Shown: positions 1 to 5,163 of the stretch, piece after piece
Position numbering within the stretch: position 1 is the first letter of the stretch
Layout: every line of letters starts with the position of its first letter
Source of the DNA: an uncultured archaeon
GTDB taxonomy: Archaea; Asgardarchaeota; Jordiarchaeia; Jordiarchaeales; Jordiarchaeaceae
Direction of reading: 5' to 3'
Assembly: GCA_964510585.1 (NCBI GenBank)
Contig: CAZECW010000092.1
Location: 1-6,563, forward strand
DNA: 6,563 nucleotides
Translations under genes and position numbers: made by a program
Notes under the pieces: generated by a model
Databases searched by the model: none
The model's input: the letters and a program-made list of their open reading frames with translations, nothing else
Told to the model about the DNA's origin: nothing

Positions 1-90
1 TGCTGACAACTCGCCTTGAGAATACATTTCTAATATTTCTTTTAGGAACTTCTTTCTTATTCGTTCAGGAATCGCTGGAGTAACATTCAT
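1..90 (-). CDS. 5' part of a UPF0175-like antitoxin (small HTH protein), truncated by the window edge
   Basis: My translation from ATG at 90-88 is MNVTPAIPERIRKKFLKEILEMYSQGELSA, open to position 1. LEMYSQGELSA resembles the UPF0175 'lY.eG.lS' motif. The ATG overlaps the TAA of the upstream DUF3368-like frame (TAATG). Only 30 codons are visible. Confidence 0.55.
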   Translation of the reverse strand, partial: MNVTPAIPERIRKKFLKEILEMYSQGELSA

Positions 91-611
91 TATTCCCACC
101 TCAACAAATTCTCCTTCACTTTTTCAATTATGTCGTCGCTCATTCGATAACCAGAACTCACTAGATTTTCAATATATTGGATTAATTGCCGTGGAGATAT
201 AATCTTACTTTTAACAGCCTCAACTAACACACCCAAACAGCCTCTTACTTTAAATCCAGAGGACTCCGCCGCATCCCTAATTTCCTCCTCATTTGCCAAA
301 ACAATTGCAGCATTATTTTCCTAGCCAGTTGAATCACTTCGGCATTACTTAAACTCACTTCATATTCCCCCATTATTTCTCTAGTTTTTTTCCCTATCCA
401 TAACCTGTACCACATTTATCAAATCTGATCTTACCGCTTCCGAAGTCTCCAAGGAGCCTGGTAGCCTCCAGCCCTCGATTACAACCTCCCTATAAATTCC
501 TTCAGGGATCATTATCTCTTTGAATTGTTCTTTTAACAGATAAAATCGCCCTATTGCTGATAGATGTATCAAAATCGATGCGTCTGCAACTACTTTCAAA
601 TCACACCCCAT
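90..611 (-). pseudogene. DUF3368-like PIN-type nucleic acid-binding toxin, interrupted by two compensating frameshifts (pseudogene or homopolymer sequencing errors)
   Basis: The N-terminal ORF has KVVADASILIHL and IMIPEGIYREV. The C-terminal ORF has ANEEEIRDAAESSGFKVRGCLGVL and GYRMS. The 81 nt between them hold 4 in-frame stops, but the shifted frame reads TREIMGEYEVSLSNAEVIQLAR, matching the family 'L..gEaEaI.LA.E' segment. The true start may be TTG at 599-597, behind a GGGGTG SD-like sequence. Confidence 0.8.
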
Positions 612-1322: not shown

Positions 1323-1916
1323 ATGAAGAAAAAGAATTTCAGCCAAGTGTACCAATTTAAGATCACGTTAAAGGGTAGTAAGCCGCCTATTTGGCGGAGG
1401 ATACAGGTTCCGGAAACCTACACCTTTTGGGACCTACATGTAGCGATTCAGGACGCTATGGGTTGGTCATTTAGCCATCTTCACGAGTTTGAAGCCATTG
1501 ATCCTTTAACCGGCTCTGTGGTGAGTATAGGAACCCCACATAAAGACTATTGGAAAGAGGTTCTCCCGGAATGGAAGGTGAAGATAGCTGACTATTTCTC
1601 TATGAAGAATAGGTCTGTGGATTACGTGTACGATTTCGGTGACAATTGGGTTCATAAGGTGGAATTGGAGAAAATTCTTCCCGCAGAAGAGGGCATTAAT
1701 TATCCAATATGCGTCAAGGGGAAAAGAGCCTGCCCCCCTGAGGACTGTGGCGGAATTTGGGGGTACGAAGAATTATTGGAAATCTTAAAAAATCCCAACC
1801 ATGAAGAATACGAAGAAACATTAGAGTGGCTTGGCAAAGATTTTGACCCAGAGCACTTTGACCCAAAAAAAGTCAAATTTCATAATCCCGACAAACTCCG
1901 AAAAGAAATCGAGTAG
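1323..1916 (+). CDS. Plasmid pRiA4b ORF-3 family protein (MM3350-like / IS1096 passenger TnpR-like)
   Basis: Hallmark motifs YQFKITLKGSKPPIWRRIQVP, DLHVAIQDAMGW..SHLHEF, YVYDFGDNWVHKV and CVKGKRACPPEDCGGIWGY. Intact 197 aa ORF with SD. Confidence 0.95.
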   Translation: MKKKNFSQVYQFKITLKGSKPPIWRRIQVPETYTFWDLHVAIQDAMGWSFSHLHEFEAIDPLTGSVVSIGTPHKDYWKEVLPEWKVKIADYFSMKNRSVDYVYDFGDNWVHKVELEKILPAEEGINYPICVKGKRACPPEDCGGIWGYEELLEILKNPNHEEYEETLEWLGKDFDPEHFDPKKVKFHNPDKLRKEIE

Positions 1917-2098: not shown

Positions 2099-2260
2099 AT
2101 GGAGGAGTGGGGGAGGGGTGAGTTTTCCGGATGTGAAGTGGAAAAATCTATTGGATGGTCTTGGTGGCTTCCGTCTGGGCTAAATGGGCGGGTTTTGAAG
2201 GTTTTTTGGTTTGGGTTTGTGGGTTTTGTGCTGTTATTTTTGGATTTTAAATGTAAAAAT

Positions 2261-2274
2261 GGAAATATATTTCC
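2261..2274. promoter_or_regulatory. 14-bp perfect palindrome, candidate operator upstream of the adaptation operon
   Basis: GGAAATATATTTCC is its own reverse complement and ends 27 nt upstream of the TTTATAAA box at 2302. Confidence 0.45.
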
Positions 2275-2294
2275 GAAATGTTTATATTTTTCCC

Positions 2295-2310
2295 AATGAA
2301 ATTTATAAAT
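2295..2310 (+). promoter_or_regulatory. Putative BRE/TATA promoter of the DUF2797-like-cas1-cas2-cas4 operon
   Basis: AATGAAA is followed by TTTATAAA (2302-2309), about 30 nt upstream of ATG 2339, which fits archaeal promoter spacing. ATTTATAAAT (2301-2310) is palindromic. Confidence 0.55.
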
Positions 2311-2338
2311 GTAAATTGCGAGAGAGAGTGAAAAAAGG

Positions 2339-3238
2339 ATGATAGCAACAACACAACAAATAGTCATCCCCCACACAAAAGAAATAGCCCCCCAAGAAGA
2401 CATCCAATTCATAGTAAGAGGATACAGTTGGCGCCCCTTCCTAGGATTCTGCCTACCACACATAGACATAATATCACATCTGGGACTAGGAAGCGCACCA
2501 CTCTTTGGGGAACACACACTCCCACTCACAAAAGAAAAATACTGCCTGGAATGCCTAAACCCCACAAGCGGAGACTCCCAGTACTGCGAAGAATGCCAAA
2601 AACTCGTCAAAATACTAAGGCTAGAGTGCATAACGAAGGGGGCTGGGGCACCCTACAACCAGCAATGCAACCCAGAAAAACCACCATGCAATTCACCCTG
2701 GGCAGAACAACTATGCAAGGAGGAACACGTAATATACATAGCAGGCTTCGGAGAACTCTTCAAAGTGGGAGTAACCAGAGCAGAGAGATGGAGCACCCCA
2801 GACGGATACAAGTATCGACTAATAGAGCAGGGAGCAGACTGCGCCGCAGTACTCAGAGGAAACCTAAACCTTGCAACCGCCCAAGAAAAAGAACAAATTA
2901 TAGCTGAAGCCCTAGAGCTAGAAACAAGAGTTGGATTCGAGTACAAAGCAGAAGAATTCGCAAACCCAAAAGGCCCACAAATCAGGGAACTGGAGGAATT
3001 AAGCCGGGAAGCTGCAAAAAGATTCGATTTACGTGAAGTTTGTCTCCTTGACCTAAGCCAGGTTTACGGCTTACCACCCGAATTAAATGTGGATGTGAAC
3101 TTGTGGCAGATTGAAGACATTTTTGGAAAAGTTGTTTATGTTAGGGGGAACATTCTATACCTTCAAGCTAACAGTTTACTCCTGGCCCATGATTTGAGCT
3201 CTGCGAGGGGGAGAGGGATAATCTGTGAGGAGGACTAA
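2339..3238 (+). CDS. DUF2797-like Cys-rich protein with a GIY-YIG/T5orf172-like motif; putative metal-binding nuclease
   Basis: 299 aa. Cys cluster C69xxC72, C83xxC86, C97, C110, C117, C126. It is followed by HVIYIAG (130-136), KVGVT (142-146), RLIEQGA (160-166) and AQEKE (181-185), matching my recollection of the DUF2797 consensus H.VYLA...KVG.T...R..QGA. Codon usage resembles the adjacent cas genes. Confidence 0.75.
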   Translation: MIATTQQIVIPHTKEIAPQEDIQFIVRGYSWRPFLGFCLPHIDIISHLGLGSAPLFGEHTLPLTKEKYCLECLNPTSGDSQYCEECQKLVKILRLECITKGAGAPYNQQCNPEKPPCNSPWAEQLCKEEHVIYIAGFGELFKVGVTRAERWSTPDGYKYRLIEQGADCAAVLRGNLNLATAQEKEQIIAEALELETRVGFEYKAEEFANPKGPQIRELEELSREAAKRFDLREVCLLDLSQVYGLPPELNVDVNLWQIEDIFGKVVYVRGNILYLQANSLLLAHDLSSARGRGIICEED

Positions 3239-3243
3239 AAAAG

Positions 3244-4296
3244 TTGTTACTTGAAATAACCAGTCACGGCTCCTTCATAGGAAAGAAGGGTCAATGTATT
3301 AAAATTACCTGTGGAGGGGAAAAACTCAAAGAGGTCCCAGTTGTTAAACTAACAGAAATAATAGTTTCCGCCTCAACAAGCATATCTTCTGATGCTGTGA
3401 AGCTGCTGGCGGAGAACGGTGTACCAGTACTATTTATGGGTGGAGGAAAACCTGTAGCACTGCTTCACGGATTTTTTATGCATGGCACAGTCCTAACACG
3501 CAGAGAGCAGATAACTGCCTACGGAGATGAGAGGGGAACACATCTTGCCAAGGCATTTGTGGATGCGGGAATGACAAACAAGCACCGCCTCCTCAACTAC
3601 TTTGCAAACAGCAGAAGGCGCACCGACCCAAAAGTGGCAGAGGGTCTGGAAACAGCCACCCAAGAAATAAAAAGAGTCCAAGAAAAACTAGGAGAAATAA
3701 ATGGGCTGATTATGGAAAACCGCTACGAGTTGATGGGCCTTGAGGCTGAAGCCACACGCATCTACTACCAGGCTCTAAGACTAATCCTCCCAGAGGAAAT
3801 AAGGTTCCAGAGGAGGGAAAAAAGGCCACCCAGAGATCCATTTAACGCCGCCCTAAGCCTGGGATACACCATACTAAACAGTAGGGTGCTGGCAGCGGTA
3901 ACCGCTTGTGGATTGGAGCCCTTCGCAGGATTCCTACACGCAGACCGCTCCGGAAAACCATCACTGGTTCTTGACTTATCAGAGGAATTCAGACAGCCAG
4001 TAGTGGATAGAACCGCAATAAGCATGTTCACACAGGGAACACTAACAGCAAAAGATTTTGAACACACGGGCGGAAGGCTACAATTCAGTGAGCAAGCCAA
4101 GAGGAGATATATTGAAGCCATACTCAACAGGCTGGAAAACGAAGGAAAACAGGGGGAGGACAAAACATCCCTGGAAAACATGATATTCCACCAGGCAAGA
4201 GAAATTGCACGTTACCTCCTTGGAAAATCTCAACGCTACACCCCATACACTTTCGAGTGGTGGGGAACAACAGGGGGAGAAAATCAAAGTGAATAA
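3244..4296 (+). CDS. cas1: CRISPR-associated integrase Cas1
   Basis: 350 aa. LMGLEAEATRIYY (catalytic E), RPPRDPFNAALSLGY, GFLH (catalytic H) and LVLDLSEEFR (catalytic acidic residues). TTG start with GAGGAGG at 3227-3233. Confidence 0.98.
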   Translation: MLLEITSHGSFIGKKGQCIKITCGGEKLKEVPVVKLTEIIVSASTSISSDAVKLLAENGVPVLFMGGGKPVALLHGFFMHGTVLTRREQITAYGDERGTHLAKAFVDAGMTNKHRLLNYFANSRRRTDPKVAEGLETATQEIKRVQEKLGEINGLIMENRYELMGLEAEATRIYYQALRLILPEEIRFQRREKRPPRDPFNAALSLGYTILNSRVLAAVTACGLEPFAGFLHADRSGKPSLVLDLSEEFRQPVVDRTAISMFTQGTLTAKDFEHTGGRLQFSEQAKRRYIEAILNRLENEGKQGEDKTSLENMIFHQAREIARYLLGKSQRYTPYTFEWWGTTGGENQSE

Positions 4297-4567
4297 CATT
4301 GTAACATATGATGTGCCTGATGACCGCTTACGGGCAAAAATTGCCTCCCGACTCTTTGAATACGGCCTCAAAAGACTACAGAAAAGTGTATTTATAGGGG
4401 AGATGAGTAGAAACAAGGCCGAAATGCTAGCCCTAGAGTTGGAAGACCTAGTAGGTGGAGAACCCGCAGACATACGCATTTTTCCCGTGTGTGAGAGATG
4501 TTTTGAGGCCCACATTGTTGTGTGTGAACTCCACGATGTGAGTGAGGAAGAGGTGGTTATAACTTGA
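4289..4567 (+). CDS. cas2: CRISPR-associated protein Cas2
   Basis: IVTYDVPDDRLRAKIA, GLKRLQKSVFIG and IRIFPVCERC motifs. The start is reassigned from the track's 4205 to GTG 4289 (92 aa, typical Cas2 length, GGGGGAG upstream, 8-nt overlap with cas1). Confidence 0.95.
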   Translation: MNNIVTYDVPDDRLRAKIASRLFEYGLKRLQKSVFIGEMSRNKAEMLALELEDLVGGEPADIRIFPVCERCFEAHIVVCELHDVSEEEVVIT

Positions 4568-5163
4568 CAGTCTGGGAATGTGTGAGGCCAAGAATCATTT
4601 TTACAGCCGAAGACATAAGGCAATACGGATACTGCAAGCGCAAACCCTACTTCCGCCACGTTTTAAAGGCAAGATTCACACCCTCAGTTAAAATGGTGAG
4701 AGGACAAAAAATACATGAAAAAACCTGCAGAGCCAAAAGCGTCGAAACAGAAGAAAATAGGGGAGTCTCAAGATACTATAACATATATCTTTGCTCCGAA
4801 GCCCTAGGACTAGCAGCCATAATAGACTACTTCGAATACGACGGCGAAAAAATAACACTAGTAGACGTAAAATCCGGTAAGGGAGCCTCAAAAACCCTAT
4901 TTGAAGGATACTACCTACAAATGGCAGCATACGCACTGCTTGTGGAGATATGCCTCGACATACCCGTCAAAAGCGTGCTAATACGGTACGAAGACGACAA
5001 AAAAGAAAAACTGCTGGAAATAGACTTCAAAGCAAAAGCCACAGTAATCCAGATACTAAAAAAGCTAAGAGAAATGGTTGAAAACGAAGTCATACCACCA
5101 CCAACAAACAATCCCAAAAAGTGCACAGACTGCGAAGCATGGAAAATATGCAGGAGAGTTTGA
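4564..5163 (+). CDS. cas4: CRISPR-associated RecB-like exonuclease Cas4
   Basis: 199 aa. DIRQYGYCKRK (first Fe-S Cys), G.KIH, IID, VDVK and QMAAY RecB motifs, and C-terminal KCTDCEAWKIC (three Cys). TTGA overlap with the cas2 stop. Confidence 0.95.
   Translation: MTVWECVRPRIIFTAEDIRQYGYCKRKPYFRHVLKARFTPSVKMVRGQKIHEKTCRAKSVETEENRGVSRYYNIYLCSEALGLAAIIDYFEYDGEKITLVDVKSGKGASKTLFEGYYLQMAAYALLVEICLDIPVKSVLIRYEDDKKEKLLEIDFKAKATVIQILKKLREMVENEVIPPPTNNPKKCTDCEAWKICRRV

Follow-up and report, generated by a model that had tools for sequence, protein, structure and literature searches.

A DUF2797 gene directly 5′ of cas1 as a candidate spacer-acquisition gene in Asgard archaea

Does the DUF2797 gene that precedes cas1, cas2 and cas4 in a hot-spring Asgard archaeon (Jordarchaeia) belong to the CRISPR adaptation machinery, and what might its product do there? 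CRISPR adaptation is known mainly from Cas1-Cas2 acting with Cas4 or host exonucleases, and both the cutting of the non-PAM prespacer end and the function of Csa1-type proteins remain poorly resolved. The window analysed here, a stretch of 6,563 nucleotides, is an entire contig (Table 1). An original prediction, made from sequence alone, held that a DUF2797-like gene heads the adaptation operon in the position normally occupied by csa1, and that an unrelated nuclease may have replaced Csa1 there, supplying or trimming prespacers.

Layout of the locus and its promoter region

The first gene of the operon encodes a protein matching Pfam DUF2797 (PF10977) over residues 61–276 (E 1.9e-12; 47.9 bits against a family gathering cut-off of 25), in agreement with a whole-genome scan; there is one copy in the source genome and one per module. 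Its TAA stop codon (3236–3238) leaves a 5 nt gap before cas1, whose ribosome-binding site, 10 nt before the TTG, is embedded in the final DUF2797 codons, while cas1 and cas2 overlap by 8 nt and cas2 and cas4 by 4 nt. The conserved acidic and histidine residues of Cas1 (E167, H232 and D244) are unchanged across 24 relatives. No terminator-like sites were found on the + strand within the operon, nor was a CRISPR array found in a search of the window. Third-position A+C content is 0.74 in DUF2797, 0.64 in cas1 and 0.79 in cas4, compared with 0.47 for cas3′ downstream and 0.48 for the PRiA4 gene upstream, and DUF2797 and cas4 rank in the top 1–3% for this measure among the 1,888 long ORFs of the genome. 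As a separate upstream region precedes cas3′ and its codon style differs, we place it outside the adaptation unit.

Table 1. Coordinates of features in the 6,563-nucleotide window.
Feature	Position	Strand	Basis
Promoter/operator region	2258–2311	+	Upstream alignment of Jordarchaeia loci; function inferred
DUF2797 gene, Cas-linked clade, 299 aa, ATG start, first gene of operon	2339–3238	+	ORF and Pfam
C4 zinc ribbon (C69, C72, C83, C86)	2543–2596	+	Conservation; weak Pfam Zn_ribbon_15 match
Second cysteine cluster (C97, C110, C117, C126)	2627–2716	+	Alignment
GIY-YIG-like alpha/beta domain, residues 129–243 (predicted)	2723–3067	+	AlphaFold model, structural matches, conservation
GAGGAGG ribosome-binding site of cas1	3227–3233	+	Sequence
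cas1, TTG start, 350 aa	3244–4296	+	Pfam Cas_Cas1, E 1.9e-80
cas2, likeliest start GTG 4289, 92 aa as in relatives	4289–4567	+	
cas4, TTG start, 199 aa	4564–5163	+	
cas3′ helicase, N-terminal 391 aa, truncated by contig end	5389–6563	+	

Alignment of the regions upstream of seven Jordarchaeia loci revealed a near-invariant block (2258–2295) that contains TTTATAT (2281–2287) and a perfect palindrome, GGAAATATATTTCC (2261–2274), present as an exact copy only once in the window. A TATA-like element, TTTATAAAT, lies outside this block at 2303–2311, and since the two positions differ, either element could be the TATA box. We infer that the operon is transcribed from this conserved promoter (∼2258–2311) and that translation of cas1 is coupled to that of DUF2797; a search of sequencing runs found the stretch in seven hot-spring DNA runs and in no RNA run. 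Sliding nucleotide identity against five relatives dips only at 2930–3100, and in this recombination test the nearest relative never changes. A switch in codon style near 3089 is not explained by the test.

The layout set out in the original prediction therefore held in most respects, namely the DUF2797-like gene at the head of the operon, the 5 nt gap and embedded Shine-Dalgarno sequence, the overlaps between the cas genes, and the A/C-ending codon style that DUF2797 shares with them. Its statement that the gene follows the operon's TATA box held only in part, TTTATAAAT being present but the conserved block with TTTATAT lying elsewhere, and the co-transcription and translational coupling it proposed fit the layout, both remaining inferences. 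Assignment to type I-A was not shown: csa1 is absent from the locus, and near-identical modules sit with other effector genes, as described below.

Linkage of DUF2797 to cas1 across Asgard genomes

The Cas-linked DUF2797 clade is strictly tied to cas1, with gene order and orientation unvarying, and it co-diverges with Cas1 and Cas4. Across a survey sample of 400 Asgard genomes the family divides into two clades (SH-aLRT 100 for the split). Members of one, patchily distributed over at least 13 family-level groups, lie directly 5′ of cas1-cas2(-cas4) in 41/42 distinct genes, the exception being truncated by a contig end, whereas cas1 or cas2 occurs within 8 kb of the other, solo, clade in 0/40 loci. 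At the strong-hit loci of other Asgard genomes, DUF2797 precedes cas1, cas2 and cas4, all on the same strand, in 28/29 cases (a contig end truncates the remaining one), cas1 also adjoins DUF2797 in 11 further loci, and no member of the Cas-linked clade was found distant from cas1 in the loci examined. The junctions with cas1 are 1–10 nt or overlapping, and position and strand are fixed among proteins that are only ∼25% identical. Dozens of independent Asgard lineages share this gene order, so it cannot be put down to chance, and the operational definition of a cas gene (adjacency to core cas genes that recurs in independent lineages with a conserved orientation and is absent in solo paralogues) is satisfied. 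Pairwise distances correlate at 0.90 for DUF2797-Cas1, 0.89 for DUF2797-Cas4 and 0.89 for Cas1-Cas4, with 0/999 permutations reaching the observed value in a Mantel test, and the groupings in the DUF2797 and Cas1 trees are congruent. Kinship of the host genomes does inflate both the linkage counts and the distance correlations.

The search beyond Asgard archaea was made with a Cas1 alignment, taking the best 80 Cas1 relatives in 185,579 species. DUF2797 is present in 25 of these loci, every lineage-named one of which is Asgard (Jord-, Frey-, Baldr-, Njord-, Thor-, Hel-, Borr-, Heimdall- and Hodarchaeota), and in none of the non-Asgard loci among the 80. The slot 5′ of cas1-cas2-cas4 is instead held by a Csa1-like gene in 18 non-Asgard archaeal loci, with 7/7 of those tested being Pfam Csa1; indeed, the Cas1 relatives from Bathyarchaeia, Methanofastidiosia and Theionarchaea have true Csa1 in the place of DUF2797 (Pfam E 1e-73 to 1e-77). 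The predicted csa1-slot idea is directly supported by these nearest non-Asgard relatives.

DUF2797-cas1-cas2-cas4 also travels as a whole, pairing with one effector module or another. Cas1 proteins 86–89% identical to that of the window are found beside type I-D genes (Csc1/Csc2) in one relative and beside a Cas7/Cas5-type effector set in another, while the window carries a different cas3′, for which the best PADLOC model is Cas3a1 and inside which the contig stops. A cas7-cas5-cas3′ fragment was observed on another contig of the source genome. Csa3-type regulators are separately encoded in related loci. At least 10 loci have an array, with up to 105 repeats, 230–530 nt upstream of the DUF2797 gene, and the gene often adjoins the leader side of an array. 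The repeat belonging to the Jordarchaeia genes was observed at the start of contig C136.

Predicted fold and conserved residues

The AlphaFold model of the protein (pLDDT 90.3, pTM 0.86) predicts a GIY-YIG-like core together with a C4 zinc ribbon, a second cysteine cluster and a beta-barrel built by strands from the two termini. The zinc-ribbon cysteines are unchanged in 81/82 aligned proteins from both clades, the exception being gapped at this point. Seven cysteines of the protein are invariant, the cysteine ligands as a whole being conserved in all but one or two of the 82 proteins, and C97 is restricted to the Cas-linked clade. Within the predicted core, Y133, K142, G144, R160, Q164, E185 and K203 are invariant in 82/82 proteins across both clades, and G165 is nearly so, although pairs of Cas-linked members differ by 73% on average.

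Comparison of residues ∼120–243 with 48,161 chains using VIA returned GIY-YIG nucleases as all of the top five matches, with modest Z scores of 3.8–5.1 (At-HIGLE 5.1, Slx1 4.5 and 4.3, I-TevI 4.2, UvrC 3.8), and the matching AFDB clusters bear the names MUG113 and GIY-YIG. Foldseek found nothing in the PDB at E up to 0.001, and a profile search of PDB sequences gave only weak zinc-ribbon-type matches (RecR, L37e) at E > 0.005. Independently of the present analysis, a 2026 preprint describes a cryptic GIY-YIG fold in DUF2797. The first motif tyrosine of GIY-YIG nucleases is present as Y133; the second is absent, K142-V-G144 occupying its place with lysine in 82/82 proteins. Lysine at this position is the pattern of the T5orf172/MUG113 branch, domains for which, to our knowledge, nuclease activity has not been generally demonstrated. 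R160, in helix 157–164, and E185, in helix 178–191, match the arginine and metal-binding glutamate of GIY-YIG enzymes, an equivalence drawn by position without superposition.

In other Asgard groups the position upstream of cas1-cas2-cas4 is taken by a larger homologue of 440–570 residues (hhalign probability 98.8%). This homologue retains the N-terminal strands, zinc ribbon, cysteine cluster and C-terminal strands, and is without Y133, K-V-G, R160 and Q164. The loss of these motif residues means that catalysis is not essential to cas1 linkage everywhere.

Three outcomes would have refuted the original prediction: a lack of recurrent linkage to cas1, the protein proving to be a divergent Csa1 or Cas4, or the association being catalogued already. 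All were checked, and none refuted the idea. Linkage was recurrent, as the contrast of the two clades (41/42 against 0/40) demonstrates. A divergent Csa1/Cas4 was rejected at an hhalign probability of 0.4% against a profile of seven true Csa1 sequences; Pfam gives no Csa1, Cas4 or PD-(D/E)XK match in the protein, and neither do the NCBIfam and PADLOC Cas profiles match it, so that the predicted lack of Csa1/Cas4 RecB motifs held. Neither could we find a link between DUF2797 and CRISPR in the literature searched, within whose limits an earlier description in Makarova 2020 CRISPR J (PMC7307682) or Shmakov 2018 PNAS (PMC6003329) is not excluded. A replacement nuclease that supplies or trims prespacers is supported as a candidate, its nuclease activity and role remaining inferences.

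Proposed role, alternatives and comparison with known systems

We favour, at slightly better than even odds (probability about 0.55), the reading that DUF2797 is a dedicated part of an Asgard-specific DUF2797-cas1-cas2-cas4 adaptation module, acting as a second nuclease beside Cas4. Confidence differs between its parts: functional membership of the module is highly probable, while a catalytic role in prespacer processing falls a little short of even odds, nuclease activity being inferred and no binding data being available. In the favoured reading, the Cas-linked protein would have been recruited from the housekeeping DUF2797 lineage and sits where the nearest non-Asgard modules carry Csa1. 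Its zinc ribbon and barrel may bind DNA, and it would serve with Cas4 in prespacer generation or trimming, cutting most plausibly at the prespacer end that Cas4 does not process, a role that by analogy may resemble that of Csa1 or of the second Cas4 of type I-A. As cas4 is still present, a second nuclease is not strictly required.

A bolder version is possible. Cas-linked DUF2797 may be a core adaptation nuclease that has gone unrecognised in Asgard archaea, of GIY-YIG type, exapted from a housekeeping paralogue and displacing Csa1; DUF2797 and Cas4 would then cut both prespacer ends, setting spacer length and orientation, and the enlarged form, catalytically dead, would persist elsewhere among Asgard lineages as a subunit with a structural role.

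The alternative that survives best, and which also remains possible, is that DUF2797 is a non-catalytic adaptation factor whose zinc ribbon and barrel bind the leader, repeat or prespacer, or dock on Cas1-Cas2, making it an architectural or specificity subunit comparable to IHF in bacterial integration, with the GIY-YIG-like fold as a scaffold only. It is supported by the 440–570 residue cas1-linked homologues, which keep the ribbon, cysteine cluster and strands and not the motif residues, by K142 in place of the canonical second tyrosine, and by the frequent position of the gene against the leader side of the array. Against it stands the invariance of the seven motif residues in such divergent proteins, which is the pattern of an active site.

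It is very unlikely that DUF2797 is a transcriptional autoregulator of the adaptation operon acting through the upstream palindrome. The protein does have a zinc ribbon, and the palindrome is invariant and lies 65 nt before the start codon, but in related loci Csa3-type regulators have genes of their own, the protein is large with an enzyme-like conserved core, and the inferred translational coupling to cas1 points to production in stoichiometric amounts, which would be unusual for a regulator and therefore counts against this idea. A mere passenger beside cas1, such as a selfish GIY-YIG endonuclease of the homing type or a defence or toxin gene independent of the module, is likewise very unlikely, for although some homing endonucleases have GIY-YIG domains (I-TevI being one of the structural matches) and defence genes gather in islands, the position, strand and tight junctions with cas1 are fixed across divergent lineages, co-divergence equals that of Cas1-Cas4, there is a single copy per module and in the source genome, and no clade member was found away from cas1.

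As a very probable module member whose function is inferred, Cas-linked DUF2797 is a strong candidate for an unrecognised spacer-acquisition gene in Asgard archaea, and for a new cas gene family missed by NCBIfam and PADLOC profiles. Its linkage to cas genes gives a first functional context to DUF2797, a widespread uncharacterised family, and its presence in the Csa1 slot offers a natural non-orthologous replacement with which the function of that slot can be tested. It may also illustrate in detail how a housekeeping gene is recruited to a defence module and how, in one branch, the catalytic motif is then lost.

Compared with the GIY-YIG superfamily (Slx1, the UvrC N-terminal domain, I-TevI and HIGLE), DUF2797 has invariant Tyr, Gly, Arg and Glu residues ordered as expected, differing in the lysine for the second tyrosine, in cleavage activity that is only inferred, and in a GIY-YIG-like domain predicted to be embedded between the zinc ribbon with its cysteine cluster and a split beta-barrel. 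Cas4-2 of type I-A and, in some type I-E systems, the DnaQ-like exonuclease domains that are fused to Cas2 are thought to trim prespacer ends; they too are extra nucleases encoded with cas1-cas2, whereas DUF2797 belongs to a different protein family and its role is only inferred. Solo DUF2797 proteins (the Asgard housekeeping clade, and those of bacteria and haloarchaea) have the Pfam family, architecture and invariant residues in common with the Cas-linked clade, but form a separate clade that lacks C97 and is near-universal in some Asgard families where the Cas-linked one is patchy; their conserved neighbours (Roadblock/LC7, radical SAM, class-V aminotransferase and unknowns) give no functional lead. 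The closest parallel in position is Csa1, found with the Cas1 lineages most closely related to those of Asgard archaea, which shares with DUF2797 the slot directly 5′ of cas1, the strand, the cas2 and cas4 that follow, and a cysteine-rich protein of ∼300 residues, and differs in fold, that of Csa1 being the restriction-endonuclease-like PD-(D/E)XK fold of the Cas4 family and that of DUF2797 being, as predicted by the model, GIY-YIG-like.

Gene order and junctions of the operon

The window comprises the whole of contig C92 from a 3.78 Mb metagenome-assembled genome; its DNA is present in hot-spring metagenomes, and the closest relatives of its proteins bear the names Candidatus Jordarchaeum or Freyarchaeota (Asgard archaea). 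The DUF2797 stop codon lies 5 nt before the cas1 TTG, and the overlaps are 8 nt between cas1 and cas2 and 4 nt between cas2 and cas4. These junctions, including the embedded GAGGAGG, are as the original prediction described them, and the A/C-ending codon style it ascribed to all four genes also held, being rare for this genome and stopping at cas3'. Co-transcription and translational coupling of DUF2797 with cas1 remain inferred.

Features of the window (nucleotides) and of the DUF2797 protein (residues)
Feature	Position	Strand	Details
Two small head-to-tail ORFs	90-611	-	76 aa (no Pfam match) and 69 aa (DUF3368, E 1.1e-7)
PRiA4_ORF3-family protein gene	1323-1916	+	Pfam E 1.6e-70
Near-invariant block	2258-2295		~38 nt
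Perfect palindrome in block	2261-2274		GGAAATATATTTCC, then TTTATAT
DUF2797 gene	2339-3238	+	299 aa; Pfam E 1.9e-12, over threshold
GAGGAGG	3227-3233		Within final codons of DUF2797
cas1	3244-4296	+	
cas2	4289-4567	+	
cas4	4564-5163	+	
cas3' helicase, start only	5389 to contig end	+	225-nt spacer after cas4
C4 zinc ribbon	residues 69-86		Predicted model
Four more cysteines	C97, C110, C117, C126		
Alpha/beta domain	residues 129-243		Predicted model

Third-codon use switches within the operon (3089-3543): T3 is ≤0.16 over 2339-3088 and then 0.24-0.32 across the last 50 codons of DUF2797 and the first 100 of cas1, after which the sequence is again A/C-rich. Sliding identity to relatives gives the same nearest relative throughout this stretch, and the cause is unexplained. 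The block upstream of the operon is near-invariant in seven Jordarchaeia loci, with variable flanks; it is possibly an operator, overlapping the probable TATA box, and related loci code for Csa3-type regulators. The PRiA4_ORF3-family gene just upstream of the operon is of unknown function; in a related Jordarchaeia locus (L004, 6725-7339) such a gene also adjoins the operon, on the opposite strand. The two small ORFs could represent either a toxin-antitoxin-type pair or a single PIN-like gene broken by a frameshift or stop.

Linkage to cas1 and behaviour as a module

A profile of the DUF2797 protein and its relatives, searched against 400 Asgard genomes, gave bimodal matches: ~40 strong and full-length, dispersed among 13 or more family-level groups, and ~120 weaker, near-universal in a few families. 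DUF2797, cas1 and cas2 lie in order on one strand in 28 of 29 strong-match loci from other genomes, at protein identities down to ~25%, the 29th locus being truncated by a contig end; cas4, scored only where the fetched flank or contig extends that far, is also in order, and cas1 is likewise adjacent to DUF2797 in 11 further loci. Among weak matches, by contrast, cas1 or cas2 occurred in 0/40 loci, each fetched with 8 kb either side. A long branch splits the two classes in a maximum-likelihood tree (SH-aLRT 100), placing 41 cas1-adjacent genes and the truncated one opposite 40 solo genes. Recurrent linkage to cas1 therefore held for one clade only. A single copy each of cas1 and DUF2797 occurs in the window's genome, with no solo paralogue.

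One Asgard genus (L080, L083, L084 and L086; genomes G053-G056) encodes DUF2797 followed by a Cas1-like gene of very low score (23-26 bits, against 385-490 for normal neighbours on the same profile), cas2 and cas4, although in L086 no Cas1-like gene scored at that position. The opposite strand carries, in divergent orientation, a further Cas1 gene that scores well.

Pairwise distances of DUF2797 correlate with those of Cas1 (0.90) and Cas4 (0.89), the observed value being reached in 0/999 Mantel permutations. The Cas1-Cas4 correlation is also 0.89, so DUF2797 follows the module as closely as the core genes follow one another. Lineage groupings are alike in the DUF2797 and Cas1 trees; common host ancestry adds to the correlations. 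Within the genus, modules with 86-89% identical Cas1 neighbour a type I-D effector set in one relative and a Cas7/Cas5 set in another, and the cas3' in the window is of a third kind; DUF2797-cas1-cas2-cas4 therefore move as a unit. The data show DUF2797 as the first gene of one particular Asgard adaptation module, conserved in that place and co-evolving with the module.

In at least 10 loci an array, with up to 105 repeats, is found 230-530 nt upstream of DUF2797; other loci have one shortly after cas4. In the window's genome the CRISPR loci are broken up over small contigs. One of these, C136 (1-240), starts with three copies of a 37-nt repeat, CTTGCAAAAAGAGTTCCTCAGAAACGAGGATTGAAAG, with spacers one and three identical, probably through assembly collapse; another, C123, has cas7 (DevR/Csa2) and cas5, together with the beginning of a second cas3'.

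Predicted fold and possible roles

The AlphaFold model (39-sequence alignment; pLDDT 90.3, pTM 0.86) packs N-terminal strands (22-68) against C-terminal ones (253-295), with weak matches to Tudor-, BAH- and Hfq-like barrels. For the alpha/beta domain, the top five of 48,161 solved chains are GIY-YIG nucleases, at modest Z-scores (HIGLE 5.1, Slx1 4.5 and 4.3, I-TevI 4.2, UvrC 3.8), and AlphaFold DB cluster matches include entries labelled MUG113 and GIY-YIG; Foldseek against the PDB gave no match. On structural matches alone this predicted fold would be tentative. A 2026 preprint assigns DUF2797 the same fold by a different method, with CRISPR unmentioned in the relevant passages. Y133, K142, G144, R160, Q164, E185 and K203 are invariant in 82/82 aligned proteins of both clades, and G165, the four zinc-ribbon cysteines and three of the second cluster in all but one; C97 is restricted to the Cas-linked clade. 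Model and sequence together point to a protein predicted to bind zinc, with a GIY-YIG-like fold and a set of invariant residues resembling an active site. Lysine replaces the canonical second tyrosine of GIY-YIG nucleases, so by that feature the protein falls short of strict membership.

In two Asgard groups (f18 and f20; L098-L112) a 440-570-aa protein lies upstream of cas1-cas2-cas4, in modules with a Cas1 that nests among DUF2797-linked Cas1. Unrecognised by Pfam, the protein is a homologue of the DUF2797 clade (hhalign probability 98.8%, E 7e-17, 175 columns), retaining the strands as well as the zinc ribbon and the Cys cluster, with a helical insertion and with Y133, K-V-G, R160 and Q164 lost. 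We regard it as a derived form that broadens the cas1 association; in group f19 the upstream protein has no match to the profile.

Our favoured reading, held at a probability of roughly 0.55 as a whole, is that the protein belongs to the adaptation module and, by inference, would bind DNA, act as a second nuclease beside Cas4 to produce or trim prespacers, and so assume Csa1's role. Membership in the module is very likely; the nuclease and prespacer roles remain inference and, taken alone, are somewhat less likely than not. It is possible instead that the protein is a non-catalytic architectural or docking subunit, the chief argument being that the enlarged homologue lost motif residues and still lies upstream of cas1, so that catalysis, if any, is not needed everywhere. 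That it is a regulator is very unlikely, and a passenger gene, set against the co-evolution shown, slightly more so.

The csa1 position in related systems

No Csa1 or Cas4 relation is detectable in the DUF2797 protein, and that identity is rejected, in line with the lack of their RecB motifs in the original prediction. NCBIfam and PADLOC, Cas profile sets included, gave no match, and the literature searched mentions DUF2797 in connection with the GIY-YIG fold or in other contexts, with no CRISPR link; some relevant surveys were outside its scope.

A Cas1 alignment was scanned against one genome per species (185,579 species) and the 80 nearest relatives kept. DUF2797 lies directly upstream of cas1 in 25 of these loci, and all lineage-named carriers are Asgard (Jord-, Frey-, Baldr-, Njord-, Thor-, Hel-, Borr-, Heimdall- and Hodarchaeota); a contig carrying the label 'Thermoproteota' is identical to one of an Asgard genome from the window's order. 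It is absent upstream of cas1 in all bacterial, Bathyarchaeia, Archaeoglobi, Thermococci, Methanofastidiosia and Theionarchaea loci among the 80. Asgard cas1 loci without DUF2797 either have the order cas3-cas4-cas1-cas2, their Cas1 forming a separate clade, or belong to a small cas1-cas2-cas4 group whose Cas1 clusters with that of Bathyarchaeia.

Cassettes of the csa1-cas1-cas2-cas4 type are usually described for Sulfolobales type I-A. Among the Bathyarchaeia, Methanofastidiosia and Theionarchaea loci L174-L210 they are common in Bathyarchaeia, and few Cas1 proteins from outside Asgard are as closely related as theirs to Asgard DUF2797-linked Cas1.

A gene of ~300 aa fills the same slot in 18 of the non-Asgard archaeal loci and is Pfam Csa1 in 7/7 tested (E 1e-73 to 1e-77), so the analogy with the csa1 position held for the nearest relatives of the DUF2797-linked lineage. 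With Csa1 in that slot, and Asgard loci without DUF2797 forming other groups, DUF2797 marks one adaptation-module lineage: as far as we have searched, a CRISPR adaptation module of a known kind in which a new accessory gene family stands in place of Csa1.
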